Origin: Methylobacter sp.
Lineage (GTDB): Bacteria; Pseudomonadota; Gammaproteobacteria; Methylococcales; Methylomonadaceae
NCBI GenBank assembly: GCA_041660285.1
Contig: JBAZWN010000008.1
Location: 6,110 to 70,109 of the forward strand
Direction of reading: 5' to 3'
DNA length: 64,000 nt
Made by a program: the position numbers and the translations under genes
The notes under the pieces: generated by a model
The model's input: only the letters and a program-made list of their open reading frames with translations
Database searches by the model: none
Told to the model about the DNA's origin: nothing
Part shown: in pieces, positions 4,924 through 64,000 of the stretch
How positions within the stretch are numbered: the stretch's first letter is position 1
Layout: each line of letters starts with the position of its first letter

Positions 4924-5690
4924 CCATGCGTTTTAAGGTAGTCATTCCTGCAAGATACGGTTCGACAAGATTGCCAGGCAAGCCCCTGCTGAACATTGCA
5001 GGCAAGCCGATGATTGCGTATGTCTGTGAGAGGGCTCAGGAAGCCGACGCCGAAGAAATTATCGTAGCGACAGATGATGACAGGATTTTTCAAACCGTCA
5101 GTGATCTGGGCATTAAAGCGGTGATGACGCGCCCGGACCATCAAAGCGGCACGGAAAGAATTGCCGAAGTAGCACAGCAATGCGGCTGGGATGGGGATGA
5201 AATCATCGTTAATCTGCAAGGCGATGAACCGCTTATTCCTTCGGCATATATTCGCGAAGCTGCGGCGGCATTAGCCGGACAGAGGCAAGCGGGCATAGCG
5301 ACACTGGCCGCTAAAATCGAAGACCATGAAGAGATTTTCAATCCAAACGCGGTAAAAGTTGTTTTGAATAATGCCGGTTACGCGCTTTATTTCAGTCGCG
5401 CTCCCATCCCATGGGAAAGAGATCGGTTTACTGCTGCAGGCGGCAAGCCTTCCGGGAAAATGCCTTATCTCAGGCACATCGGCATGTACGCTTATACGGT
5501 TGATTTTTTAAACCGCTACTGCCAGTGGGATGCTTCACCGCTCGAATCGGTTGAGTCCCTGGAGCAACTGAGAATATTGTGGCACGGTGAAGCTGTTCTG
5601 GTGAAAACCGTAGACAAAACCCCTGATGCCGGCGTTGATACCAAGGAAGACTTAATACGCGTGGAGCAGGCATTATACTTGGACCGCTAG
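4920..5690 (+). CDS. kdsB: 3-deoxy-manno-octulosonate cytidylyltransferase (housekeeping copy)
   Basis: [43 protein letters not shown] motifs. Confidence 0.97.
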
Positions 5691-13300: not shown

Positions 13301-13599
13301 TGTGGAAAGACCTTTTTAAATGGTTTAACGATAACCTTGGCATATACTCCGGCATCGATATAAGGATCAACGTCCGCCCATTGCTGGGCATCTGTCAGGC
13401 TATCGAACTCGGCGACTATTAAGCTACCGGTAAACCCGGCTTCTCCCGGATTGTCGCTGTCAACAGCAGGATGCGGACCGGCTAAAACCAGTCTTCCGGC
13501 ATCCTGTAGTTCCTGCAGCCTCTTGATATGCGCAGGGCGCACTGACATTCTTCTGTCCAGACTGTCCGCTACATCTTCACTGATAATTGCGTATAACAT
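13297..13599 (-). CDS. yciI: YciI family protein
   Basis: [23 protein letters not shown] motifs. Confidence 0.93.
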
Positions 13600-13602
13600 T
13601 TC

Positions 13603-14139
13603 TTATTTCTCTGTATCGGGGATGTATTTATATAAAAAAATCATTTGCAGCAGGATGAAAATAACCATCAAGCCCGGTACGCCAAATGTTTTGAAGGTAA
13701 CCCAGTCGTCGGTGTTGTAATTGTACATCACGTAAAGATTGATAAAGCCTACGCTGATAAAGAAGCTACCCCACATGACGTTCAACCGTTTCCAAACATG
13801 TGCCGGTAAAGTTAAGCTGCCGGACATCATTCTTTCAACGAATGGTTTTTTGCCAATAAACTGGCTGCCCAAAAAGGCTGCGCCAAACAGCCATTCTATG
13901 ATGGACAGCTTCCATTTGATGAATTGTTCATCCTGGAAATAGAGGGTTGCACCACCCATTACCAGAATCAGCCCCAATGTAATCCATTGCATGATTTCGA
14001 CTTTACGGTGTCTAAACCAGGTGTAAGCGACCTGAATAACAGTGGCTGCGATAACAACAGCCGTGGCGACATAAATATCGTAAAGCTTAAACGCGATAAA
14101 AAATAAAATAATCGGAAAAAATTCGAAAAGCTGTTTCAT
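13603..14139 (-). CDS. yciB: Septation protein A / inner membrane-spanning protein YciB (IspZ)
   Basis: FIKWK, W..LN..W..FF and WVTFKTFG motifs; yciB-yciI-bolA-ppiC synteny. Confidence 0.92.
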   Translation of the reverse strand: MKQLFEFFPIILFFIAFKLYDIYVATAVVIAATVIQVAYTWFRHRKVEIMQWITLGLILVMGGATLYFQDEQFIKWKLSIIEWLFGAAFLGSQFIGKKPFVERMMSGSLTLPAHVWKRLNVMWGSFFISVGFINLYVMYNYNTDDWVTFKTFGVPGLMVIFILLQMIFLYKYIPDTEK

Positions 14140-45173: not shown

Positions 45174-46421
45174 CTAAGCAACTTTTACTACCTCAACTTT
45201 AGGTAATGGAAACACCAAACTCATACCCGAAAACTTTTTGTTTGCGGTAAAAAATTTCCTGAAATGCCACGGCAACACAATAATGTAATCCGGCTTTTTA
45301 GCAAGCAGCTCCTGTTCTTGAATAATCGGAATCCATGTGCCTGGCGTGTAGCAGCCGAATTTTTCGGGATTTACCTCACCTACAGATTCAACTTCCTTTG
45401 TAGTTAGGCCGCAGTATTGCAACAGCACATTACCCTTGGTTGATGCACCGAGAACTGCTACAGACTCACCTTCAGCATGAACTGCCGCAATGAATTTCAA
45501 TAAATCACTCTTTGTCTGAACCACGCGCTCGGCGAATGCTTGATAAGGCGTCAACGTGTCCAGTCCTCTTGCACGCTCATCGTCGAGAATTTTCTGTATT
45601 GAATAAGCCGCCGTCAAGTCCCCATTCGACTTCGATACCGTTACTGAGAAACTACCCCCATTAATATCGTTAAACTCCACATCAAGAATCTTGAAGCCCA
45701 CTTGATCCGTCATCCATTTGATTTGCCGCAATGCATAAAACTCCAAGTGTTCATGACACACCGTGTCATACGAATTCGTATCCAGCATGGTTGGCATGTA
45801 ACTTTGCTCAAATACCCAAATGCCATCGTCCGCCAGCACGTCATATACCTGACGCATAAAATCCATCGGATCTTCCAGGTCGTAGAACATGGAAAATGAG
45901 GTAACAGCCTTTGCCTTTTGTCTGGGGAAGCGCTCTTTCACCAGGGCGGAAGAAAAGAAATCCGGGATCAGTTGAATGTGTGCAGGGTAATAGTTGCGAA
46001 ATTTAATGCCTGTCGGATCAACACCCACCAACACCAGGCCTGTGGATGGATAAGCTTGTAATGTGGTGCTGTCATTGCTGCCAATATCGATAACGAGATC
46101 ACCCTCACTTAACTCGACAAGACCAAGGATTCGTTTCACCTTGTTGTTAAGATGCTCCACCATGCTGGCATTAAGGCCCGAGCGATAGCCATAGTTTTCA
46201 CCATACATCTCGCCCAAATCGTAGGAATGCTCCATCTGCAACAGCCCGCATACCTCATCTCCACCCGTGCACTTCACCAAGCGCAGAGGGCCGGTCGTGA
46301 CTTTTGCGTCCTTCTCACGTGGAAAAACGCCAGTGAGCATCTGCTCTCCCAAGTCAAGCACACACTCCAGATGCGTATTGCCACAAATCCTGCATTTCTC
46401 AATTTTCTTGTATATCGTCAT
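45174..46421 (-). CDS. NDP-hexose C-methyltransferase
   Basis: N-terminal CRICG...C zinc motif, YGYRS, DIGSNDST SAM motif, YDTVCHEHL, GASTKGN C-terminal domain. Confidence 0.88.
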   Translation of the reverse strand: MTIYKKIEKCRICGNTHLECVLDLGEQMLTGVFPREKDAKVTTGPLRLVKCTGGDEVCGLLQMEHSYDLGEMYGENYGYRSGLNASMVEHLNNKVKRILGLVELSEGDLVIDIGSNDSTTLQAYPSTGLVLVGVDPTGIKFRNYYPAHIQLIPDFFSSALVKERFPRQKAKAVTSFSMFYDLEDPMDFMRQVYDVLADDGIWVFEQSYMPTMLDTNSYDTVCHEHLEFYALRQIKWMTDQVGFKILDVEFNDINGGSFSVTVSKSNGDLTAAYSIQKILDDERARGLDTLTPYQAFAERVVQTKSDLLKFIAAVHAEGESVAVLGASTKGNVLLQYCGLTTKEVESVGEVNPEKFGCYTPGTWIPIIQEQELLAKKPDYIIVLPWHFRKFFTANKKFSGMSLVFPLPKVEVVKVA

Positions 46422-46437
46422 TTGTCTTATCTATTCT

Positions 46438-47403
46438 TCAAATTTTTCCACTTAAGTTCTGCAAATCTGCGTCCACCATCATGTGTACCAGCTCTTTAAA
46501 CTCAATTTCCGGTTTCCAACTTAACTTACTATTGGCTTTGGCCGCACATCCAATCAGTGCCGCGGGCTCAACAGGCCTGTAAACTGATGCATCATCACGC
46601 ACATAATCGCGATAATCGAGTCCCAGATAACTAAAAGCAAACTCGCATAATTCACGAACCGAGTGCGCCTTTCCTGTCGCCACGACATAATCATCCGCAT
46701 ATTCCTGCTGTAGCATTAACCACATGGCACGAACATAGTCGCCTGCATATCCCCAGTCCCGTTGCGCATCCATATTGCCAAGGTGCAACTCCTTTGCCAG
46801 ACCCAGCTTGATCTTTACCGCTTCCTGAGTAATTTTTCTAGTCACAAAACATAAACCGCGACGCGGGCTTTCGTGGTTAAACAAAATTGCCGAACATGCA
46901 AAAAGGCCATAGCGTTGCCGATAAATCCGAATCATCAAATCCGCGTAAAGCTTAGCCACACCATAGGGGCTGCGTGGATTAGCAGGCGTACTTTCAGTTT
47001 GAGGGCTTTCTGTAGCTTCACCAAAAACTTCTCTGCTTGAAGCTTGGCAGAATCGCATATTGGCATCCACTTCACGAATTGCTTCCAATATGCGCGTAAC
47101 AGCCAAACCATTCACCTCACCCACTCCGACAGGGTCATCGTACATACCTGCCCCCGATGAATAACCGGCAAAGTTATAAATTTCCATCGGACGATATTCA
47201 GCCAACACTTCCGTCATGCGGTCCTGATCAAGCATATCCCATGCGATCAACTCGACGCTATTCTTCAGGGCGGCAGGAAACGACTCCTTACTATTTTGAC
47301 TATCTCTCACTGCGCCAATGACACGGTAGCCTTTGGCGAGCAGTAATTCCGCCAAATACGATCCATCCTGCCCTGTTATCCCTGTGATAAGCGCTGTTGG
47401 CAT
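46438..47403 (-). CDS. Second GDP-mannose 4,6-dehydratase-like enzyme
   Basis: TGITGQDG, QASSREVFG, PRSPYGVAK, FNHESP, RDWGYA; clearly divergent from gmd at 37112. Confidence 0.85.
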   Translation of the reverse strand: MPTALITGITGQDGSYLAELLLAKGYRVIGAVRDSQNSKESFPAALKNSVELIAWDMLDQDRMTEVLAEYRPMEIYNFAGYSSGAGMYDDPVGVGEVNGLAVTRILEAIREVDANMRFCQASSREVFGEATESPQTESTPANPRSPYGVAKLYADLMIRIYRQRYGLFACSAILFNHESPRRGLCFVTRKITQEAVKIKLGLAKELHLGNMDAQRDWGYAGDYVRAMWLMLQQEYADDYVVATGKAHSVRELCEFAFSYLGLDYRDYVRDDASVYRPVEPAALIGCAAKANSKLSWKPEIEFKELVHMMVDADLQNLSGKI

Positions 47404-53065: not shown

Positions 53066-54607
53066 TTATTTCGGATTTTCCATATCCTTGAAAATTGCAG
53101 CCTTGAACGTATCAACATCCAGTGGACTAAAAAAATCTCTGCAGTATTGTTTGGCCAACATAAATGCAGTTTCTCCATCCAATGGAGAATTAGCTTCATC
53201 GGTTTCAATCGCATGTTTCAAATCATTAATATTTTCAATATTGGTGTGCCAAGCGCCAAGCTCATACAAAGGGTCTATGCTCATTTCTCCCTGCACATGG
53301 AGATACAGCGGCCTCACCCCAGCAGCGACTGCCTGAATAATGGCCGTCGTTCCTCTGTAAAGCGCCCAGCTACAGCGCGCAATATCAGTATCAAGGTTTT
53401 CTTGGGATAAGATAATATTACCTGGAAGGTCTCGCAGCTTAACGTTATGACTCACCAAAGATTCGAATGTAACGACTGGATGCAGTCGCCAGATAAATTG
53501 AATATCGGGGCATGCCTGCGCGCAATCCAAAGAGAATTCAAACAGAAGATGACATTCACTGGCGATACCTTCGGGAAGAACCAGGCAGGCTCGCTTATTT
53601 GACTGTCCACGAATCTGTGTCGGCGGTAACTCAAATTTATCTGCCTTAAAGCTACGATTGGAGCCTAACACGGAAATCGGAACTCCTTTCAGATCCGGAG
53701 CCAATTCCAATTGCTTCTTTCCGACTGGCCCCGCCGTCAAAATACAATCTGGATTGTATTCGCGCCCAAGGCTGCGCCGAATGGCGTGCTGTAAACAAAA
53801 CACGGCAGCATGCTGATAACCAACACACAACACCTTTGGAGCGCTGCTTCGAGCTGCAGCGAACGCCACTCTTTCCCATGCATGACCTTCATGGATGGTT
53901 ACGACGGCCTTGGGTTTTAACTTGTCCACTAATCTGTTTATCTGTCTGGAAAGCCGTAAAGTTGCCAGTGACTCATTTGTCAGCGCTTCTTGGGATGAGC
54001 GCGAAAGCACTTTTCGAAGCAGGTCTACAGTTTCATTTTTTGCAAGCGTTCTTAACCGAAGCGACTCCATTTTTAAGCGCTGATGAAGAGCGATTTCCTC
54101 GGAATAGCCGAGCGAGCAGGAGAGAATTACCCGTGGTACTGCGCTGTCTTTCCATTTGTACGCGAGAGTCGCCGCTGACTGTTCAGAGTGATTGAGCAGC
54201 GCGATCGCCACTGAATGTCCTTGCCCAACTAGCTCATCAGGCAGTTCACCAAAATAAAAATCGGCCGCATCGCCGGCATGGGACTCATTAAGCAAATGTG
54301 AGACGAACAGAACATCGACCTCGTGAGGAAGTTCTTTTGAAGCAAACCAGAACTCCCCGTCTGAGCGTAATGCTCTTCCAATCTGTCTGACCCACCCTGC
54401 CATGTTACGCAAATCCCGCAACCAGCGGCGACTCAGCGCCTTGATGTCCTTTGTATGCTTGAAAATATCTACATATTTAGAAAGGGTTAGAGGGTGTTCG
54501 CGAATAACATGTAGCCAAGGAACGGCAACACGCTCAATCGTCGAATCCGGTGCCAGCAGTACGCGATCGCAAGCTTCGCATAGCTCTCGATACTGCTCTT
54601 CGTTCAA
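53066..54607 (-). CDS. Probable GT-B glycosyltransferase of the CMP-sugar (sialyl/Kdo transferase-like) type
   Basis: HEG, YQHA, WRLHP (HP motif) and RGTTAIIQAVAAG segments; TTG start; directly after the cytidylyltransferase. Confidence 0.55.
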   Translation of the reverse strand: MNEEQYRELCEACDRVLLAPDSTIERVAVPWLHVIREHPLTLSKYVDIFKHTKDIKALSRRWLRDLRNMAGWVRQIGRALRSDGEFWFASKELPHEVDVLFVSHLLNESHAGDAADFYFGELPDELVGQGHSVAIALLNHSEQSAATLAYKWKDSAVPRVILSCSLGYSEEIALHQRLKMESLRLRTLAKNETVDLLRKVLSRSSQEALTNESLATLRLSRQINRLVDKLKPKAVVTIHEGHAWERVAFAAARSSAPKVLCVGYQHAAVFCLQHAIRRSLGREYNPDCILTAGPVGKKQLELAPDLKGVPISVLGSNRSFKADKFELPPTQIRGQSNKRACLVLPEGIASECHLLFEFSLDCAQACPDIQFIWRLHPVVTFESLVSHNVKLRDLPGNIILSQENLDTDIARCSWALYRGTTAIIQAVAAGVRPLYLHVQGEMSIDPLYELGAWHTNIENINDLKHAIETDEANSPLDGETAFMLAKQYCRDFFSPLDVDTFKAAIFKDMENPK

Positions 54608-54650: not shown

Positions 54651-55415
54651 TCATTCCAGCACCTGCTCAAGCAATGTACGCTGTTCATCGTTGTATCGAA
54701 TGTAATCCAGCACAAGCTCAGCCTCATCAGGTTCATTTACCGAGGGTAAGCTCGGCGTAACAGGGACAGACCGCAGATTGAAGCCATTCTCAATGATGCG
54801 CATTTGCTCTATGAACTCAGCCTGTTCAATCGGTGAGGCGGGAAGCGCCGTGATCTCCATCAAGAAGTCTTTACGATAGGCTATTATTCCAAGAATCTTC
54901 CTCACAAAAGACTGTTGCACATCGAAAGCGCTATAACAGGGCGTCCGACGGAAACAATACAAAATGCGATCGGATGACGAAACAGCGCACTTCACAAAGG
55001 AATGACGATCCAACTCATCCTTGTGTTCGATAGGTCCGGTGGCATTCCATGCATCGCCATCTGGCTCAGCCGTAATTGCTTTTGCAAAAATTTCCATGTG
55101 CCTAGGCAATAACAACGGTTCATCACCCTGTAGCAGCATTACATGAGTGCAATCCACGTCCCTTATCGCCTCGGCAACCCGGGTAGTACCATTAGTGTGC
55201 GTATTGGCCGTCATGACGACCTTTCCGCCAAAGCCGCGTACCACCTCGGCGATCTCCTCGTCGCAGGTCGCTACATACACATCCGACACGACACCGGAAA
55301 GCAAAGCACGCCGACGGACGTGCTCAATCATAGGCAGACCGTGGAAAGGAAACAGGATTTTTCGGGGAAATCTGACCGACGCAAGATGCGCAGGAATAAC
55401 AGCAACAATATTCAT
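54651..55415 (-). CDS. KdsB-like ulosonate cytidylyltransferase (second, divergent copy)
   Basis: IPAHLASVRFPRK, NGTTR, QGDEP, EQMR; clearly homologous to kdsB at 4920. Confidence 0.88.
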   Translation of the reverse strand: MNIVAVIPAHLASVRFPRKILFPFHGLPMIEHVRRRALLSGVVSDVYVATCDEEIAEVVRGFGGKVVMTANTHTNGTTRVAEAIRDVDCTHVMLLQGDEPLLLPRHMEIFAKAITAEPDGDAWNATGPIEHKDELDRHSFVKCAVSSSDRILYCFRRTPCYSAFDVQQSFVRKILGIIAYRKDFLMEITALPASPIEQAEFIEQMRIIENGFNLRSVPVTPSLPSVNEPDEAELVLDYIRYNDEQRTLLEQVLE

Positions 55416-55428
55416 TTGTACCCAACAC

Positions 55429-56178
55429 TCATTGAGGAAAGACACCGCAATCCACATTAATACATTGCCCAGTCATCGCAGATGCTGCATCAGACGTCAA
55501 GAACAAGCTCATTGCAGCCACCTCTGCTCCAGTAGGAAGCCTGCCCAACGCGGCATTTGCCGCTGTAAAATTTGCGATAAACTCTTCTGGATTGCCTTTG
55601 GCAGGCGAAGCAGGGCTATTCAATGCTTCAAGTAACCCGTCTGTGGGAATGAGTACTGGACACAAAGCATTTACCCGAACTCCACGTGGCCCGAGTTCTT
55701 TGGCAAGCGATTGAGTCAACCCATTCATCCCAAACTTGGATGCGCAATAAGCAGAGTTGTTTGAACTTCCACGCTTCCCGGCAATACTGGAAATATTGAT
55801 GATGCATCCACCGTCCTGCATAACACTTGAAGCGGCTTTACAACCCCAGAAAGCCCCTTTTAAGTTGGTGCCAATCAAATCGTCCAGAAATTTTTCATCA
55901 ATATCCGCAATAGGTCGCCATTCCGAAAAACCCGCATTATTGATGTAAACATCCAGCGTTCCTGTTTTTTCGATTGCGGCATCCACCAAGCGACGGTGAG
56001 CGGATTCATCCTGAACGTCCGCAGAAATAAATCTGACCTTATCGCCAAACCGGGTTCCCAATCCAAGCTCCTGCCGTGCCCCCACAATTACGAAATAGCC
56101 GGCATTGACATAAGCTTCTGTAATGTTGAGTCCGATTCCACGGTTTCCTCCCGTGATCACTACTGTTTTTTGCTTCAT
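55429..56178 (-). CDS. SDR family oxidoreductase
   Basis: TGGNRGIG, NNAG, YCASK, DCG C-terminus. Confidence 0.92.
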   Translation of the reverse strand: MKQKTVVITGGNRGIGLNITEAYVNAGYFVIVGARQELGLGTRFGDKVRFISADVQDESAHRRLVDAAIEKTGTLDVYINNAGFSEWRPIADIDEKFLDDLIGTNLKGAFWGCKAASSVMQDGGCIINISSIAGKRGSSNNSAYCASKFGMNGLTQSLAKELGPRGVRVNALCPVLIPTDGLLEALNSPASPAKGNPEEFIANFTAANAALGRLPTGAEVAAMSLFLTSDAASAMTGQCINVDCGVFPQ

Positions 56179-56234
56179 GTATTGTATTTACTCCAAACTC
56201 TGTAATATGTTCTTGTTGAAAAGTGTTCGCAAAC

Positions 56235-57017
56235 CTAGATGGTCATACAAGAAAAGCCGCCATCAACAGCAATCTCCGCGCCTGTAACAAAGCCGGATGC
56301 ATCTGATGCCAGCCATAGGGTCGCGCCAATTAATTCATTTGGCTCCCCATAGCGCTTCATTGGAGTGTGTCCAAGAATAGCAACTTCACGCTCGGGAGTT
56401 ATAAAATTCTTGCGATTCCATTCCGTCGGAAAGAATCCAGGCCGTAACGCGTTAACTCGAACACCTTTCGTGCCCCACTCCCGACCTAGGTTTTGTGTCA
56501 GGTTCTTGATCCCTGCCTTAGCCACGGAATAAGTTATTGCCTTGGAGAGAGGCGGACCTGCAGATGCCGATGAGAGATTGATGATTGATCCGCTGCCTCT
56601 GTTTACCATGTATTCCCCGAATACCTGGCAACCAAGAAAAGTGCCGGTAACCTGTGAGTCTAGAATCGCGTACCACTCTTCAAGGGTTAATTCAAAAAAC
56701 GGTGTCGGCCCGTTAATGCCGGCCCCATTGACAAGAATATCAATCTGGCCAAAGGCTGAAAGCACTTTTTGTAGCGCATCAACGTGATCCTGTTTTTTTC
56801 CAACATCAATGGCAATTGATATTACATTTTCAAAACCCGCTCTTTTCAATTCATCTTCTACAGTCTTTGCCTTTTCCAGTTTTAAGTCCAATATTGCAAC
56901 TTTACACCCGGCACGAGCAAATCCTCTCGCCATTTCGCCACAAAGATGGCCGCCAGCGCCGATCACTACGGCAACCTTGCCTTCCAAATTAAATAAATCA
57001 TTAAGATAAGAATTCAT
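56235..57017 (-). CDS. SDR family oxidoreductase (gluconate 5-dehydrogenase-like)
   Basis: GAGGHLC, VNGAG, YSVAK, PGFFPT, VDGG. Confidence 0.9.
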   Translation of the reverse strand: MNSYLNDLFNLEGKVAVVIGAGGHLCGEMARGFARAGCKVAILDLKLEKAKTVEDELKRAGFENVISIAIDVGKKQDHVDALQKVLSAFGQIDILVNGAGINGPTPFFELTLEEWYAILDSQVTGTFLGCQVFGEYMVNRGSGSIINLSSASAGPPLSKAITYSVAKAGIKNLTQNLGREWGTKGVRVNALRPGFFPTEWNRKNFITPEREVAILGHTPMKRYGEPNELIGATLWLASDASGFVTGAEIAVDGGFSCMTI

Positions 57018-57033
57018 AAAAAACCTTTAATAG

Positions 57034-57819
57034 TTAGCGCATTGATTTGATCATGCCTTGCATCTTTTCTGCCCACTTCCACAACACAAACAGATCGGAA
57101 CTTAATATTGCATAGGTATATCCGAGATCAAACAGGGTCTGAACGCTTTCTTCTGACGCATCGGCTACTTGCGTACCGCAACTCTTGCCAAAGCGTTCGC
57201 AGGCCGCGATCACCTTGCGTGACGCTTCGATCACAAGAGGATGCGACGTCTGCCCTGGCACACCCAAGGAGCCGGAGATATCATACGGCCCCACCATCAC
57301 GCCATCGACTTCGTCGAAGGCGAGTAATTTCTCGATATTCTCAACTGCCTGGATCGACTCAACTTGAATAATGAAACTCGAAGTGTCATTCCAGTTCTGT
57401 ATGTAACTGTCGAAATCAAACCCATAGGCCTGTGCGCGGTTAACGCCATAGCTCCGATTACCCATGGGAGGGTATTTGAGATACCTGATGATCGCTTCTA
57501 CCTCTTCTGGCGTATTAACCATCTGTACCAGCAACCCATCAGCACCCGACTCCAGCAGCGGCTTAAACCAATCGTTCGAATGGGAAACGGGGCGCGGCAA
57601 ACATGGCACCCCCTCACTTTGACAGGCCGAGATGATACGCTGCGCCTGCTCCACGGAAATGGTGGAATGCTCCATGTCAATCGCAATGAAATCAAAACCT
57701 GCACGCGCAAAAGTTTCAGTGATTGAAGGATGCGCGTAGGACACCCAACCTGCAAACAGCCGCTCACGCTGCCGCAACCGCTCTTTTAAAGCAGCTCTTT
57801 TTTCAAATATGTTGTTCAT
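57034..57819 (-). CDS. HpcH/HpaI aldolase family protein
   Basis: IDMEHS, PPMGNRSYG, IQVES, MVGPYDIS.SLG. Confidence 0.9.
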   Translation of the reverse strand: MNNIFEKRAALKERLRQRERLFAGWVSYAHPSITETFARAGFDFIAIDMEHSTISVEQAQRIISACQSEGVPCLPRPVSHSNDWFKPLLESGADGLLVQMVNTPEEVEAIIRYLKYPPMGNRSYGVNRAQAYGFDFDSYIQNWNDTSSFIIQVESIQAVENIEKLLAFDEVDGVMVGPYDISGSLGVPGQTSHPLVIEASRKVIAACERFGKSCGTQVADASEESVQTLFDLGYTYAILSSDLFVLWKWAEKMQGMIKSMR

Positions 57820-57901
57820 CTTTATTTTCTTGAGTTTGTAAGAGGATAAAAAATTCTATTGCTTCAATAGCAAGATAATCAATTGGCCTGGCCGGAATAC
57901 A

Positions 57902-58327
57902 TTATTCTTTCATCCCAAGCAATGCTTGAACCGCTGGATGAAGGTGCAGCAGGCCGACAAGAGTTCCCTTACCATCCACGACAGGCAGATCCCATATCTG
58001 CTTTTGACCCATCAAACCAACCGCATGCACCAATGTGTCGTCTGGCTGAGTCGTCATGGGCGATCGAATAGCATGTTCGAGTGCATCATCCACAAGCAAT
58101 GCGGAGAATGGTTTTTGTACCTTGAGTAACTTGCGTCGGATATCACCATCCGTGAGAATACCAAGAAGCTTGGTGTCAACATCCACAATACAAGCAATGC
58201 CCAAGCCTGACCGACCCATCTCTTCAAGAGCCTCTTTCATAATAACGGTCTCGCCGATCACCGGAATCCGATTCAGCGGCATCATGACTTCACTGACCTG
58301 CATCGCATTATTTTTCTGGGTGGACAT
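57902..58327 (-). CDS. Stand-alone CBS-pair protein resembling the C-terminus of KdsD
   Basis: GILTDGDIRR and DLPVVD...VGLLHLH motifs; ATG 58327 overlaps the end of the KdsA-like gene; no SIS domain. Confidence 0.85.
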   Translation of the reverse strand: MSTQKNNAMQVSEVMMPLNRIPVIGETVIMKEALEEMGRSGLGIACIVDVDTKLLGILTDGDIRRKLLKVQKPFSALLVDDALEHAIRSPMTTQPDDTLVHAVGLMGQKQIWDLPVVDGKGTLVGLLHLHPAVQALLGMKE

Positions 58328-59189
58328 TGTCTTCTCCATATTTTTCGAGTAATTCAAGGCGCGTCTCATGTATGGCCTTGGCCTGGCCGAGAATATTTTC
58401 CAGATACTGGATATCCAGCACCGTATTGGCATCCGACAATGCATTATCGGGGTCGTCATGGACTTCCATGAACAAGGCGTTGATGCCGCAGGCCACCGCC
58501 GCCCGAACCAGATAAGGGATAAACTCGCGCTGCCCGCCAGAGATATTGCCCATGGAGGTCGGTAACTGAATCGAATGCGTCGCATCAAAACACACCGGAT
58601 AGCCAGTTCTAGCCATTATGGGGAAACAAGTCATATCGTTGACCAACATGTTGTAACCCAAAAAAGTGCCGCGATCAGCAAGCAGAATCTGGTGATTACC
58701 ATTAGCCTCAATCTTCCTTACAGAATTTTTCATATTCCAAGGACTCATAAATTGGCCTTTTTTCAGGTGGACAGGTCTATTCGTTAAAGCTGCAGCCTTC
58801 AATATGGATGTTTGTCTGCACAAATAAGCCGGCACCTGCACCATGTCACAGACTTCCCCAGTCGCCGGTCCCCAAGCTGGTTCTGAAAAATCCGAGACCA
58901 CTGGAATCCCAAATTCATCTCTGATGTCGGCAAGAATGCGCAAACCATCATCCGCACCAAGGCCATGAAAGCTGTCCAGTGAGGATCGGCAATCCTTGTC
59001 ATAACAAGATTTATAAATCCACGAGATACCAATACGACGACAGATATCACTGATTGATTCCGCCATTTTGAAAGCATGATCACGGCTTTCGATTGCACAA
59101 GGACCGCCAATAAACACCAATGGTAGGCGGTCGCCTATTCTCACTTTGGCAACAGAGCCATACCCGACTTCAAGTGTCTTTTTATCCAT
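58308..59189 (-). CDS. KdsA-like (KDO8P synthase family) PEP-dependent synthase, divergent
   Basis: GPCAIES (metal Cys), QVPAYLCRQT, KKGQF, RGTFLGYN, FDATHS, EVHDDP..A.SD. Confidence 0.92.
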   Translation of the reverse strand: MDKKTLEVGYGSVAKVRIGDRLPLVFIGGPCAIESRDHAFKMAESISDICRRIGISWIYKSCYDKDCRSSLDSFHGLGADDGLRILADIRDEFGIPVVSDFSEPAWGPATGEVCDMVQVPAYLCRQTSILKAAALTNRPVHLKKGQFMSPWNMKNSVRKIEANGNHQILLADRGTFLGYNMLVNDMTCFPIMARTGYPVCFDATHSIQLPTSMGNISGGQREFIPYLVRAAVACGINALFMEVHDDPDNALSDANTVLDIQYLENILGQAKAIHETRLELLEKYGEDNVHPEK

Positions 59190-59979
59190 GAAAAACTACC
59201 ATTTTTTGTTCCTGAATACGGAAAATGAAAGGCCTCGCCATTACGAGACGGCTGTTGATAACGATCCTTACTTCTTGCGACTGCTCCACTTGAACCGGAA
59301 ACACATGGGAGCCTCTTGGCCGCAACTGTACCTCTTGGACACCCAAGCTCGCTCCGCTACGCGCTGATAGCACCTGGCAAGCGATGAGTTGATTACGCGA
59401 ACTGGGGTTCACTATTGCCACCTCATACAACGCCGGGCCTGATAGTTCATGCTGAAGTCTGTATTCACGCGGGAAAATGCTGCTCGAACCGAGAAGTGTC
59501 AGTCCTGTGGACTCGCACAGAGAAATTGCATCAAGGCTTCCATGCACATAGCTACGCAAAGGTGCATCTTTATAACGATAACTCACATAGCCTCTTTCTG
59601 TGATAAACGATCCAATGTCCGATATCATTTGGGGGGCGGAGTGAAAGACGCAAAATGTACCGAAAGAACTTTTTGACTCAACCAGGAGTTCAGAAAAATC
59701 GACCGTCTGCCGTTGATTATGAAGCAAAGCCAGACGCTTTTCAAGGAACTGGTTACCGTTACTGTCGAAAAACAGAATAGTCACTGACCGACTGGATGCA
59801 CCTTCACCATCATCAAAAAGTCCCGCAATATCTGTTAGCTCAAAGAATGTCTTCCAGTCTTCAGAATTACGCCACACGAACAGGTCGCTGACAGGCACTC
59901 CAGCTAGTTTGGGTTTTTTAGTGAGCGGCTGCCCGAAGGTCCAAAGCGCCCTCCTTAACTTTTCTATATTGTATCGCAT
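59182..59979 (-). CDS. Hypothetical protein
   Basis: 265-aa ORF translationally coupled on both sides (TAATG overlap at 59979; overlap with the KdsA-like start). Confidence 0.75.
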   Translation of the reverse strand: MRYNIEKLRRALWTFGQPLTKKPKLAGVPVSDLFVWRNSEDWKTFFELTDIAGLFDDGEGASSRSVTILFFDSNGNQFLEKRLALLHNQRQTVDFSELLVESKSSFGTFCVFHSAPQMISDIGSFITERGYVSYRYKDAPLRSYVHGSLDAISLCESTGLTLLGSSSIFPREYRLQHELSGPALYEVAIVNPSSRNQLIACQVLSARSGASLGVQEVQLRPRGSHVFPVQVEQSQEVRIVINSRLVMARPFIFRIQEQKMVVFHG

Positions 59980-60764
59980 TATTGCGCCGCCCTTGAGAAC
60001 CATGTGTTTTTAAGGATTTTCTGAGCCTCCCGTCGCTGTCCGTGGATTACATAGCTCGCTGGTGGGTGGGTATGCTCAAGACTGAGAAACGAACCATCGC
60101 AAGTCTTCGAAAAATACAATGGGATTCCCGACATTTCTCGACAAATAATTAAAGGCAAATCAATTGGACTAAAACCAAGCCCGTCTAGAGCAATGATTGT
60201 TACGTCATTGTTTCTTACCTCAAATTTACGCCTTAACGCTGTGTTCTCAGCATCGTATATTTCCACTTGCGAAGTTCTCGTGACTGGAGAGTTTTCCATG
60301 TTCAGAAATATCAGATAGTTCTCTATCTCTTCACCGAACTGAATAAACGGACAGAAAGTCAACAGTGACCCCGGCGAGGCAAACGAATCAATCTCACCTT
60401 GATAACTGACCAAAGCATTATTCGTTGATAGGCCCAGTGTCGCGCGCCAGGCGGGCATTGCTGTTCGGGGCGCGTCTATCTGTGGCAAGCTATCACTGCG
60501 CGCAGAAAGCTTTGATGTACTGAGCGACAGCAAAGGCAGCACACCTTCGGGAATCACCCCGGAAATCTCCTCAGTGCTGATAGTACGCATTGCACCATGC
60601 GCAAGTACCCCGAGGGATTCGGTTCGCCATGCGCCCTCTTCAGCCCAAGTCAAGCTGACAAATTTCTCTGTGGCATCCCTCGTCTCCCAGTTATTGGGCG
60701 AAAAATTACACAGAGTTGTCCAACCTTGGCAGCCCGGTGCTTTAAGGATAGGGTAATAGGACAT
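59979..60764 (-). CDS. Hypothetical protein
   Basis: 261-aa ORF tightly packed in the operon; EHTHPP near the C-terminus. Confidence 0.75.
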   Translation of the reverse strand: MSYYPILKAPGCQGWTTLCNFSPNNWETRDATEKFVSLTWAEEGAWRTESLGVLAHGAMRTISTEEISGVIPEGVLPLLSLSTSKLSARSDSLPQIDAPRTAMPAWRATLGLSTNNALVSYQGEIDSFASPGSLLTFCPFIQFGEEIENYLIFLNMENSPVTRTSQVEIYDAENTALRRKFEVRNNDVTIIALDGLGFSPIDLPLIICREMSGIPLYFSKTCDGSFLSLEHTHPPASYVIHGQRREAQKILKNTWFSRAAQ

Positions 60765-60775
60765 ATATACCTCGC

Positions 60776-61708
60776 TCAGTTAGAAGTTTTTTGTGCGACA
60801 GCTCTTAACCACCAAGCTGGCTTAGAAGATTCACAATGTGCATTAAAAGGCGCGACTGCCGCACGTTCGAGCGGGTCTGACAACGATTCCATCCCCTGTC
60901 TAACCTCTGCAAAAGGGGCAATCAACCCTATGGAGATTAACTTAGAGCGCAATCTCATCCATTTAGCCTGCAATGCAGAAGCCGAATGCAACCGCTCAAT
61001 CTCTTGGCCGTAATAACTAACTTCTATATTGTCAAACCCTAATGTGCCCAGCAACAGTTGCATGGGTTCCTTATCGAAGAAAAGAAGATGCGGTTCATCG
61101 ATCGGCTTGTGCTCCCAATCCCGGCAGGGAACTTCGATAAAAATACCACCCCCTATGCGCAGGTTTCGGGTGGCATCCTTTAGAAACTCGATGGGATTTG
61201 AGACATGCTCCAGAACATGAGACATCACGACCAAATCGACCGATGCATTTTCTTCCGCCACGGCAGAAGTCTCAACAAGGCGAACCCCCAATTCTCTCAG
61301 AGAGGCATGGCAAGATATATCCGTCTCAACAGCCAGATAGTTAGCCGCCGGATGCTTCACGAGCCAGTTACGCGCAAAAAAACCAGCCCCTGGACCCAGT
61401 TCCAGTAGTTTTGACACATCGATGCGGTACTTATCCAAGTATCGTTCAAGATAGGCCATACGCAAGCGAGCAATACCTGAAAAAAAAGCAGTAGCCCAAG
61501 GTGTGCTCGGTTGACCGCCATGGGCAGTGACGAAATAGCTCGCATTGTAATCGGAAAGCGCCTTGTTGCCGGGCATGGGAGTGGCAAAAACCATACCGCA
61601 TGAACTGCAATGGGCGCGATGCAACCCGTTAAAAGTAGGGTGGGCGCCTCGATATGAACCTCGCACCTCGACATCAACACTCTTGCAAACTGGGCAGGCT
61701 TCGATCAT
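60776..61708 (-). CDS. Class I SAM-dependent methyltransferase with N-terminal zinc motif
   Basis: CPVC...[32 protein letters not shown]. Confidence 0.88.
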
Positions 61709-62313
61709 TTTTCCGTTATCTCTTGGTTGCGATACTTGATGACTTTAGCCGGAACCCCCCCGGCGATGGCCAACGGCGGAACATCTTTGGTAACCACAGC
61801 ACCTGCACCAATTATAGCTCCCCTGCCAATGTGAGTCCCGCCAAGAATCACTGCATTCGCACCTATCCAGACATCGTCATCAATATCAATGTTAAGGGGT
61901 ATATGCCCCTGCTGTCGAATAAAAACATCAGGATTGTCATATCTATGCCCAGCCGTACGCATGACAACATTCGGGCCGATAAGACACGATTCACCAATTC
62001 GAATCTCCCCTCCAACCGATGCATTAAGGTGAACATTCATATTAAACGCCGTATTGGAACCCACCGTGATTGCACCGCATTCAGCCGTGAAAAATGAATT
62101 TTTTCCAATACTGATCAAACCATTAAAGCACATGGTCTGTGGGGAAATAAATTCACAGCCCACGTCAATATTGACCGCCCCGTTTTTTTGAAAGCGTCGG
62201 CCAAACCACCCTCGTCTTATAACGCCGCCTATGCGTCCAGGCATGAATCTGACAATCGACTCTATCCATACAATGACTTCGTTGGCTAGCAAATTAAGCA
62301 TGCCTATCTTCAC
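61705..62313 (-). CDS. Hexapeptide-repeat (LbH) O-acyltransferase
   Basis: [49 protein letters not shown]. Confidence 0.92.
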
Positions 62314-62433: not shown

Positions 62434-63999
62434 TCAAACCACTACTGATTTCAACCAGACTCTAAGCTCATCTTGTCCGCACAATATATCAATCCCATGG
62501 GCAGCTTGATCATCCTTTTGAATCATGCCATTGGGGTCATAGTAGACAGAGGGCTTACCTAGCGCCTGCCCTAAAAGTGCAGTAGAGGTAAAAGGCGTAG
62601 AGATAACCGCAATGCAACCTTCAATAACGTTGACTGCTGCAACATCTGGATCAACATGAATGCAATGCGGAAGTTTTTCGAATTCTTCAACAAATCGTCT
62701 GTACGCTGGGTGAGCCAATCTCCCAATATCACGCTTGCGTTTCAGTGCAAGGGAACAGTCGGCTTCTTTCAATATTTCGTGAACATCAGTCAAAAACTGA
62801 TTTGCTGTCGTCGGAGTGTAGTAATCAAAATCTATAGCCAGCGTGTTATAAAAAACAGCGCGGACAGGCTGAACATCGAATACCGCAACCGTTCTTGCCG
62901 GCAATGCGGGCATTTTATTTGTGTTGTCGCTAAAGTGAATGGAACCAACAACATCAATACACGGATCTCCGCAGGCCACCCGGCGCACAAAATCCGCCTG
63001 ATATTCATCCCATACCAGATAACGAGGCCACGTCATTGCTTGATACCCGCAATATGCCCTTAGCGGATCACGCCCCGGTCGTTTGAACGCCTCTATGTTC
63101 GTCGAGTAGAAATAAAGGATTATGCGCGATCCTTTAGCCTCGGCCTCATAGGTCCAAAGGGGGCGGTATATCCAGCTAGAATTATGAAACAAGTAATCCC
63201 GAGCAAGTTGATCAGATTGATGCATACGCATTAGAGCGGCTTTCGATGCCTCACTAAGCAGCACAGCATGCCACCAACGCCCACGGAAAAAATCAATCGT
63301 TGCAATAACGCTTGCAGCTACTCCCCATCCCAAGTAACGGAACAACGTTGTGAGTTTGGTTGGTGGCGGTATTGCTGATCGCAAGGAGAATAAAGGCACC
63401 CCCATAGCCCTAGCCTGAGTGACACTTTTAACTGTGTGACTGATCGCATCAAGTTCGCTAGTCCGCCCCGGCCAACGCTGGTACCAGGAAATGATGTCCT
63501 GACCGAACCCATCTTCGGGTGAACGAGGGAAATTATTTACTGACAAGCCATCAAAAAAAGCATAGCGACCAAGCACAGGAAGCGAGGGCTTAATAATTTC
63601 CTTGATGCCCCTCAAGAAAGTTTTTCCGATGGACATGATGCCGTAAGCGAGAAAAATAATGACCAAAGCGTTCCACAAAACCGTAGACCTAACGGTTGCA
63701 ACCTCGAACCCATGCTCATTTACAATTTTACGCCACTCAGGCGGCAATGGATAAACTACCTTTGCCCCCATTTTACCATGCGTATAAAGGATTGCCTTTC
63801 CGAATTGAACACCTGCCAAGCGCATCAGTAGGTATTGCCGAATAGCCAGTTCTGCACTATTAGCCGCTGCACCAAAAATAATTTTTGAATAGAATCCGTC
63901 TTTGATGCACCCGGTTGTAGTAAACGCAATATTTGCTGTATTTATTTTTTCCAATGAATCGGATTTTTTCAGTACGCGATGCCCGCGTAATACTCGACG
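62434..63999 (-). CDS. Polysaccharide biosynthesis PFTS-motif protein (5' end outside window)
   Basis: ISTPFTST motif near the C-terminus; the frame stays open upstream of the listed TTG (RRVLRGHRVLKKSDSLEKI...) to the window edge. Confidence 0.8.
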   Translation of the reverse strand, partial: RRVLRGHRVLKKSDSLEKINTANIAFTTTGCIKDGFYSKIIFGAAANSAELAIRQYLLMRLAGVQFGKAILYTHGKMGAKVVYPLPPEWRKIVNEHGFEVATVRSTVLWNALVIIFLAYGIMSIGKTFLRGIKEIIKPSLPVLGRYAFFDGLSVNNFPRSPEDGFGQDIISWYQRWPGRTSELDAISHTVKSVTQARAMGVPLFSLRSAIPPPTKLTTLFRYLGWGVAASVIATIDFFRGRWWHAVLLSEASKAALMRMHQSDQLARDYLFHNSSWIYRPLWTYEAEAKGSRIILYFYSTNIEAFKRPGRDPLRAYCGYQAMTWPRYLVWDEYQADFVRRVACGDPCIDVVGSIHFSDNTNKMPALPARTVAVFDVQPVRAVFYNTLAIDFDYYTPTTANQFLTDVHEILKEADCSLALKRKRDIGRLAHPAYRRFVEEFEKLPHCIHVDPDVAAVNVIEGCIAVISTPFTSTALLGQALGKPSVYYDPNGMIQKDDQAAHGIDILCGQDELRVWLKSVVV

Positions 64000-64000
64000 C

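Follow-up and report, generated by a model that had tools for sequence, protein, structure and literature searches.

Which sugar is made by a gene set that joins a KdsA paralog and a KdsB-like cytidylyltransferase with a pyruvate aldolase and two dehydrogenases? Such a set is found in Methylobacter sp. (contig JBAZWN010000008.1) at positions 54651 to 59189 of a 64,000-nucleotide (nt) stretch, here called the window, to which coordinates refer unless a contig or locus is named. It consists of six genes, all on the minus strand, in the order KdsA2-CBS-HpcH-SDR1-SDR2-KdsB2. The preliminary description of this DNA had placed the six genes contiguously here and a candidate transferase beside them, and all of them are indeed present, with an open reading frame (ORF) of 513 codons next. 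It is likely that the set forms a dedicated pathway to a cytidine monophosphate (CMP)-activated acid that resembles 3-deoxy-d-manno-octulosonic acid (Kdo) and is other than plain Kdo. On balance, we favor the view that this long form of a mobile cassette, lying in a polysaccharide locus, yields a CMP-activated, Kdo-like 3-deoxy-2-ulosonic acid that is probably not Kdo.

An extra gene set beside a complete Kdo pathway

The genome encodes a complete canonical set consisting of KdsB (window positions 4926 to 5654; 314.5 bits), KdsA (contig 27; 413.7 bits), and KdsD and KdsC (both on contig 24), and the KdsA2/KdsB2 set is an extra. The cassette had been proposed to be dedicated; the presence of the full canonical pathway elsewhere in the genome and the conservation of the unit across phyla argue for the same. 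With KdsD and KdsC encoded on contig 24, neither is present in the window, just as had been reported for a KdsC-like phosphatase and an SIS isomerase. The description of the pathway as complete-looking is not borne out, because the phosphatase lies outside the cassette (presumably the housekeeping KdsC here, a KdsC-type HAD phosphatase of the gene cluster in Prochlorococcus).

KdsA2 is found in none of 40 related genomes (24 of the same genus and 16 of the same order); those with any match carry only canonical KdsA, 43 to 49% identical. The cassette is acquired and horizontally mobile. No description of it was found in the literature searched, nor is it mentioned in a genomics study of Leptospira (PMC4758666), and the set is apparently undescribed. 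KdsA2 and KdsB2 each form a clade of their own, apart from the housekeeping enzymes.

KdsA2 and the CBS pair

KdsA2 (positions 58308 to 59189) is a paralog of 3-deoxy-d-manno-octulosonate 8-phosphate (KDO8P) synthase and belongs to the phosphoenolpyruvate (PEP)-dependent 3-deoxy-ulosonate-phosphate synthase family (Pfam ID PF00793). It is about 50% identical to KDO8P synthases of solved structure and passes the cut-offs of TIGR01362 (321.1 versus 314 bits) and NF003543 (336.5 versus 242 bits). In the alignment to the Aquifex aeolicus enzyme (PDB ID 1fwn), the metal-site Cys (in GPC), His (DATHS), Glu (ME(T/V)H), and Asp (SDA) residues are kept, along with the phosphate-binding Arg and Ser and further Lys and Arg residues of the site; we take the roles of these metal- and PEP-site residues to be those known for KDO8P synthase.

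The motifs of the sugar-binding part are altered. In KDO8P synthases, the KANRS loop contacts arabinose 5-phosphate, to which the PAFLxRQTD motif binds as well. In the Methylobacter KdsA2, KSSFDKANRS is replaced by KSCYDKDCRS and PAFLCRQTD by PAYLCRQTS, and the L7 loop reads PTSMGNISGG. The respective motifs of the whole clade are K[SA]C[YF]DKD[CS]RS, PAYLCRQT[ST], and, in place of PGGxGxxSGG in L7, PTSMGxxSGG. Among 131 KdsA2 sequences, a regular expression finds KD[CS]RS in 128 (and no motif in the other 3), PAYLCRQT[ST] is present in 128, and all 131 have PTSMGxxSGG. The canonical KdsA proteins of these hosts retain KANR[ST] and PAFLCRQT[DN], and in the KdsA tree KdsA2 forms a single clade on a long stem (support, 100/98), apart from them; one row of that tree labeled canonical (G030) is a wrong ORF and was disregarded. 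Judged by these motifs, the aldose-phosphate loop of KdsA2 is rewritten and departs from the arabinose 5-phosphate motifs of KDO8P synthases.

The free-standing CBS pair (positions 57902 to 58327; 141 amino acids; two matches to PF00571) is encoded by a gene that overlaps kdsA2 by 20 nt. This protein has no SIS catalytic domain and resembles the C-terminal half of KdsD/KpsF, covering only positions 155 to 268 of the KpsF/GutQ model TIGR00393 (69 versus 203.7 bits). Its gene always directly follows kdsA2, whether or not the aldolase and SDR genes are present, and the protein is probably a regulatory partner of KdsA2. An apparent CBS-HpcH fusion in one related locus (L039) was discarded, as a stop codon separates two genes.

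Phyletic distribution and modular forms

The preliminary description had suggested a search for the same gene set in other taxa. A scan of one genome per species, with gene order read by tblastn synteny, gave 80 loci, and the order KdsA2-CBS-HpcH-SDR1-SDR2-KdsB2, usually followed by the 513-residue protein, recurs in about 60 independent loci of many phyla at 47 to 91% identity, so the arrangement is not due to chance. The hosts include Proteobacteria, Bacteroidota (among them freshwater members), Nitrospirota, Leptospira (including L. noguchii), Prochlorococcus, SAR11, SAR116, SAR324, Thioglobus, and Legionella and its relatives. Loci without an adjacent KdsA2 have a copy, 77 to 80% identical, elsewhere in the genome. 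The E. coli genomes searched show no DNA-level match to kdsA2-CBS-HpcH-SDR1, and a plasmid collection contained only a 36%-identical aldolase.

A metagenome scan seeded with KdsA2 gave 27 informative loci with at least 6 kb of downstream sequence. The long form is found in 17 of them and a short form, KdsA2-CBS-KdsB-glycosyltransferase, with neither aldolase nor SDRs, in 9; the KdsA2 motifs are identical in both. None of the 27 has only part of the trio of HpcH, SDR1, and SDR2, which are present or absent together. The KdsB tree unites the type-I KdsB2 sequences in one clade (support, 100/99), apart from canonical KdsB. Eight short forms group together as a single derived clade within the long forms, and six other short forms carry a KdsB that groups with the canonical enzyme. 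The KdsB2 clade travels with the trio, and the trio is gained and lost as one unit.

Other lineages have the trio, or its aldolase, and no KdsA2. Two delta-type metagenome-assembled genomes (MAGs) encode HpcH-SDR1-SDR2-KdsB2 and no KdsA anywhere in the genome. Loci of Planctomycetota and Omnitrophota (L072, L100, and about 17 others) contain a parallel cassette without KdsA2, in the order Gfo-SIS_2-TAL_FSA-HpcH-HAD-(methyltransferase)-(SDR1-SDR2)-KdsB-2-hydroxyacid dehydrogenase, where Gfo stands for Gfo/Idh/MocA. It looks like a nonorthologous Kdo-type pathway in which a pyruvate aldolase fills the role of synthase. We read these arrangements to mean that the role of synthase is open to either KdsA2 or the aldolase and that the SDR pair is optional, and that, where KdsA2 is encoded, the aldolase and the two SDRs behave as a single add-on accompanied by the KdsB2 clade. 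In some loci, methyltransferases, PhyH-like dioxygenases, and 464-residue membrane ORFs that resemble MBOAT O-acyltransferases by appearance are inserted within the cassette, which points to lineage-specific tailoring.

The aldolase and the SDR pair

The HpcH/HpaI-family class II (metal-dependent) pyruvate aldolase (positions 57034 to 57819) scores 103 bits against PF03328 (gathering threshold, 25) and stays below the cut-offs of all equivalog models (HpaI, 146 versus 369; GarL, 128 versus 393; RhmA, 119 versus 441). Its alignment with YfaU (PDB ID 2vws) shows that the catalytic motifs IDMEH, PRP, QVES, and GPYDIS are kept; in general form, the shared motifs are IDxEH, RP, QVES, and GPxD(I/L)S. 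Homologs of more than 80% identity are encoded in Legionella, Nitrospirota, and delta-type MAGs, all in the same six-gene order. As the only candidate synthase of the forms that lack KdsA2, HpcH would work there in the synthetic direction.

Profile and PDB sequence matches identify SDR1 (positions 56235 to 57017) and SDR2 (positions 55429 to 56178) as classical short-chain dehydrogenases. The models nearest to SDR1 (mannonate oxidoreductase, gluconate 5-dehydrogenase, and KduD) act on sugar acids, and SDR2 is similar to glucose-1-dehydrogenases and acetoin reductases.

KdsB2 and the candidate transferase

The ORF of KdsB2 extends from 54651 to 55457, with the start likely at 55415, since the orthologs have 254 amino acids. 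It matches PF02348 (120 bits) and falls below all KdsB cut-offs (TIGR00466, 120.2 versus 155.2; NF003952, 191.9 versus 193; a third model, 205.6 versus 255). The core nucleotidyltransferase motifs IP..S.R.P.K, QGDEP, and VK are kept. However, all 72 type-I KdsB2 sequences have Asn (residue 227 here) in place of the Asp of the C-terminal G-[VI]-D-T motif of canonical KdsB; the Asp is retained in canonical-like KdsB and in the Planctomycetota/Omnitrophota type.

The 513-residue protein (positions 53066 to 54607, minus strand) has no match in Pfam. Its AlphaFold2 (AF2) model (predicted local distance difference test [pLDDT], 92; predicted template modeling score, 0.91) has a GT-B fold, and Foldseek matches it to GT-B glycosyltransferases and epimerase_2 proteins with a probability of 1.0. 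Generic GT-B enzymes, rather than sialyl- or Kdo-transferases, head the list of structural matches, and there is a weak match to the BFO_1060 family (E = 0.0024). Residues E240, E245, R374, H376, and S401 are invariant and P377 nearly so, which gives an R-x-H-P motif. As the gene comes after KdsB2 in most loci of both the long and the short form, its product is a candidate transferase for the CMP-sugar, an assignment that draws on the modeled fold.

Phosphatase and substrate source in Prochlorococcus

Prochlorococcus is otherwise without KdsC and KdsD. A full KdsD is found in 1 of 31 genomes, and 3 of the 31 carry the CBS-only protein of the cassette. In two of three cassette-bearing genomes tested, the gene cluster that contains the cassette also encodes a KdsC-type HAD, whose gene ends the run in locus L071 (positions 13598 to 14125 of the locus; 138 bits versus a cut-off of 107). 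Two genomes without the cassette have no KdsC-type HAD. The cluster enzyme suggests that the product of the cassette is probably phosphorylated and needs a KdsC-type enzyme. The cluster supplies this phosphatase but no isomerase, which argues that the aldose phosphate is not arabinose 5-phosphate made by KdsD.

Proposed pathway

KdsA2, probably regulated by the CBS protein, would join PEP to an aldose phosphate of pentose-5-phosphate size to give an acid resembling Kdo 8-phosphate. The rewritten aldose loop and the occurrence of the cassette in KdsD-less Prochlorococcus argue against KdsD-made arabinose 5-phosphate as the substrate; ribose 5-phosphate is our guess. A KdsC-type phosphatase, here presumably the housekeeping KdsC, would then strip the phosphate, and HpcH, SDR1, and SDR2 would remodel the free acid before activation, which is the weakest step of the scheme. 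The chemistry that we prefer for the trio is inversion at C4 by retro-aldol and aldol reactions of HpcH, with another carbinol inverted by oxidation and re-reduction. Although this pair of inversions must be regarded as doubtful, it would explain why the SDRs are never found beside KdsA2 without the aldolase and why, in loci that lack KdsA2, the same SDRs come after the aldolase. KdsB2, a cytidylyltransferase by its family assignment, would form the CMP-sugar, and the GT-B protein might transfer it, most likely to a variable surface polysaccharide.

Alternative readings

The cassette could instead serve only to boost ordinary CMP-Kdo for a Kdo-containing capsule or O antigen, much as KpsF and KpsU do for the group 2 capsules of E. 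coli, the aldolase and SDRs being engaged in unrelated salvage or side-chain chemistry. The retention of metal and PEP residues in KdsA2, its scores above both KDO8P synthase cut-offs, the canonical-type KdsB beside it in some short forms, and the KdsC-type phosphatase that serves the Prochlorococcus cluster all fit such a role. However, the near-invariance of the rewritten loop over the 131 sequences, the coexistence of an intact canonical KdsA with KdsA2 in the same genomes, the gain of a phosphatase and no isomerase by KdsD-less Prochlorococcus, the joint inheritance of the trio and the KdsB2 clade, and the scores of KdsB2 make it unlikely. Two roles had been offered for the aldolase and SDRs in the preliminary description. 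In the first, they lie upstream of KdsA2 and build a nonstandard aldose phosphate for it, as the altered aldose loop and the lack of an isomerase gene in the cassette might suggest. But HpcH-type aldolases yield 4-hydroxy-2-oxo acids, not aldose phosphates, and the KdsA2 motifs do not change between long and short forms. The short forms without the trio and the lineages that have the trio and KdsB2 but no KdsA show that the trio is not needed to feed KdsA2, and on these grounds this candidate was set aside as very unlikely. For the same two reasons, the other role, redox modification before CMP activation, fits better.

In a further scheme, which we consider improbable, the aldolase catalyzes a second C-C step, in which a carbonyl made by an SDR on the KdsA2-derived acid is joined to pyruvate to give an ulosonic or ulosaric acid that is branched or has roughly 11 carbons. 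The long form does hold two enzymes that form C-C bonds, HpcH is the sole candidate synthase where KdsA2 is missing, and KdsB2 differs from canonical KdsB. On the other hand, a sugar of this kind is not known, the conversion of primary alcohols to aldehydes is rare among classical SDRs, and KdsB2 resembles KdsB closely in both size and core motifs. That the long form yields, by this route, an unreported type of monosaccharide, a branched or approximately C11 3-deoxy-2-ulosonic (or ulosaric) acid, is a highly speculative proposal with little chance of being correct. In a milder version, the product may be a new stereoisomer of Kdo, such as a 3-deoxy-altro- or allo-octulosonate derived from ribose 5-phosphate.

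Several observations weigh against the preferred pathway, in which a Kdo-like acid is remodeled by the trio before activation. KdsA2 passes two curated KDO8P synthase cut-offs, and, as some short forms have a canonical-type KdsB, its direct product could be ordinary Kdo. Prochlorococcus may have a source of arabinose 5-phosphate other than KdsD. The PDB sequence matches of SDR1 and SDR2 are generic and indicate no substrate. Stereocontrol at C4 is loose in the HpcH family, and it is on this property and on gene co-occurrence that the case for a C4 epimerase rests; to our knowledge, there is no precedent in the family for an aldolase acting as such. One locus from a single-cell amplified genome (SAG) (L064) has HpcH without SDRs or KdsB2 nearby, and MAGs, SAGs, and short metagenome contigs are the source of many of the related loci.

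Genomic neighborhood

From position 64000 down to about 33950, every gene is on the minus strand, forming a surface-polysaccharide locus; the locus around the cassette exceeds 45 kb and includes a MOP-family flippase and several glycosyltransferases. The genes of the run abut or overlap, and promoter and terminator scans gave no signal above chance. Directly upstream of kdsA2, and overlapping it by 8 nt, is a gene for a 273-residue protein without a family (positions 59182 to 60003; no Pfam or NCBIfam match), preceded by one for a 261-residue all-beta protein (positions 59979 to 60764), both on the minus strand. The two genes are translationally coupled and, in many loci and above all in short forms, immediately precede kdsA2. 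The 273-residue protein has 45 orthologs, nearly always paired with the 261-residue one. The AF2 model of the latter (pLDDT, 88) is all-beta, and its E-H-x-H-P-P motif is invariant; it has no fold match in PDB at E ≤ 0.001, no Pfam or NCBIfam match, and no detectable relationship to the 273-residue protein. The 261-residue protein may represent a new enzyme family tied to KdsA2.

Further upstream, also on the minus strand, are possible tailoring enzymes, namely, an S-adenosylmethionine-dependent methyltransferase (positions 60776 to 61708; weak UbiG/BioC-type matches) and a left-handed beta-helix (hexapeptide) O-acetyltransferase (positions 61705 to 62313), which occur together in several related loci, sometimes within the cassette. 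Upstream of these is a PFTS-motif polysaccharide biosynthesis protein (positions 62434 to 63954, minus strand; TIGR04417, 368 bits versus a cut-off of 100), which is present in about 20 related loci and has no detectable homology to the 513-residue GT-B protein.

Downstream of the cassette are genes for a deacetylase-like protein, a GT2 glycosyltransferase, an acyltransferase_3 protein, a GDP-mannose dehydratase paralog, and a methyltransferase-like protein and, further on, the MOP-family flippase, a 482-residue membrane protein, and more glycosyltransferases. The paralog, a second, divergent GDP-mannose 4,6-dehydratase (TIGR01472, 340 bits, under the cut-off of 415), adjoins the methyltransferase-like protein, of 415 residues (positions 45174 to 47403 for the pair), a hint that the same glycan includes a modified 6-deoxy sugar.

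The polysaccharide locus runs on for at least 18 kb past the end of the window (contig positions 70000 to 88000). This part encodes one complete NeuB, a second NeuB-like ORF that leaves the examined stretch, and a second CTP_transf_3 protein, as well as a class I/II aminotransferase, a PhyH dioxygenase, an RraA-like aldolase, an amidohydrolase, an ATP-grasp ligase, and a MaoC-SDR fusion. The locus probably also yields a nonulosonic acid with heavy tailoring, next to the Kdo-like sugar. In Legionella (locus L015) and Prochlorococcus (locus L071), the cassette likewise has NeuB genes at its flanks.

Significance and comparison with known systems

Surface ulosonic acids influence phage adsorption, grazing, serotype, and immune recognition. 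If the proposed pathway is correct, an acidic surface sugar of this kind would be made by abundant and diverse bacteria, such as Prochlorococcus, SAR11, SAR324, Thioglobus, freshwater Bacteroidota, Leptospira, and Legionella relatives. The cassette would represent a new branch of the Kdo and sialic acid world with its own families of synthase, cytidylyltransferase, and transferase, and the common misannotation of its genes as kdsA, kdsB, "rhamnonate aldolase," and "FabG" could be corrected. The forms also offer an experimental handle, with the short form expected to make the base sugar, the long form the remodeled sugar, and the aldolase-only form to work without a PEP-dependent synthase. The modular short and long forms, the linkage of KdsB2 with the trio, and the cluster phosphatase of Prochlorococcus are new here.

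The cassette shares with the canonical CMP-Kdo pathway a PEP-dependent synthase of the same family, with the metal Cys and the phosphate-binding Arg and Ser kept, the probable dependence on a KdsC-type phosphatase, and activation of a 2-keto-3-deoxy acid by a KdsB-family enzyme. However, its synthase and cytidylyltransferase fall into separate clades, the aldose-binding motifs are rewritten, only the CBS half of KdsD is present, and an aldolase and two SDRs are inserted. It also lies in a variable polysaccharide locus, spreads horizontally, and occurs even where there is no Kdo pathway. In the group 2 capsule locus of E. coli, Kdo-pathway paralogs (KpsF and KpsU, an extra KdsD and KdsB) are likewise encoded within a surface-polysaccharide locus. 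In contrast to the cassette proteins, KpsF is a full SIS-CBS isomerase and KpsU makes ordinary CMP-Kdo, and no additional synthase, aldolase, or SDR is encoded in the capsule locus.

The pathways to CMP-activated nonulosonic acids (N-acetylneuraminic, legionaminic, pseudaminic, and ketodeoxynononic acids) are similar in that a 2-keto-3-deoxy acid is built, the free acid or a precursor is tailored, the acid is CMP-activated, and transfer is by a GT-B enzyme with an HP motif, a role for which the 513-residue protein is a candidate here; NeuB-type genes adjoin the cassette. Those pathways use NeuB-family synthases, NeuA/PseF-type synthetases, and tailoring on nucleotide-hexosamines, whereas the cassette has a KdsA-family synthase and no aminotransferase. 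The catabolic HpcH/HpaI aldolases (YfaU/RhmA, GarL, and HpaI) share the fold and the catalytic motifs with the cassette enzyme and act on 2-keto-3-deoxy sugar acids; in rhamnose and fucose catabolism, such aldolases are found beside SDRs that oxidize these acids. The cassette aldolase differs from them in scoring below the equivalog cut-offs, in being conserved at more than 80% identity across phyla, and in belonging to a biosynthetic glycan operon, and in some lineages an aldolase of this type appears to replace the PEP-dependent synthase.

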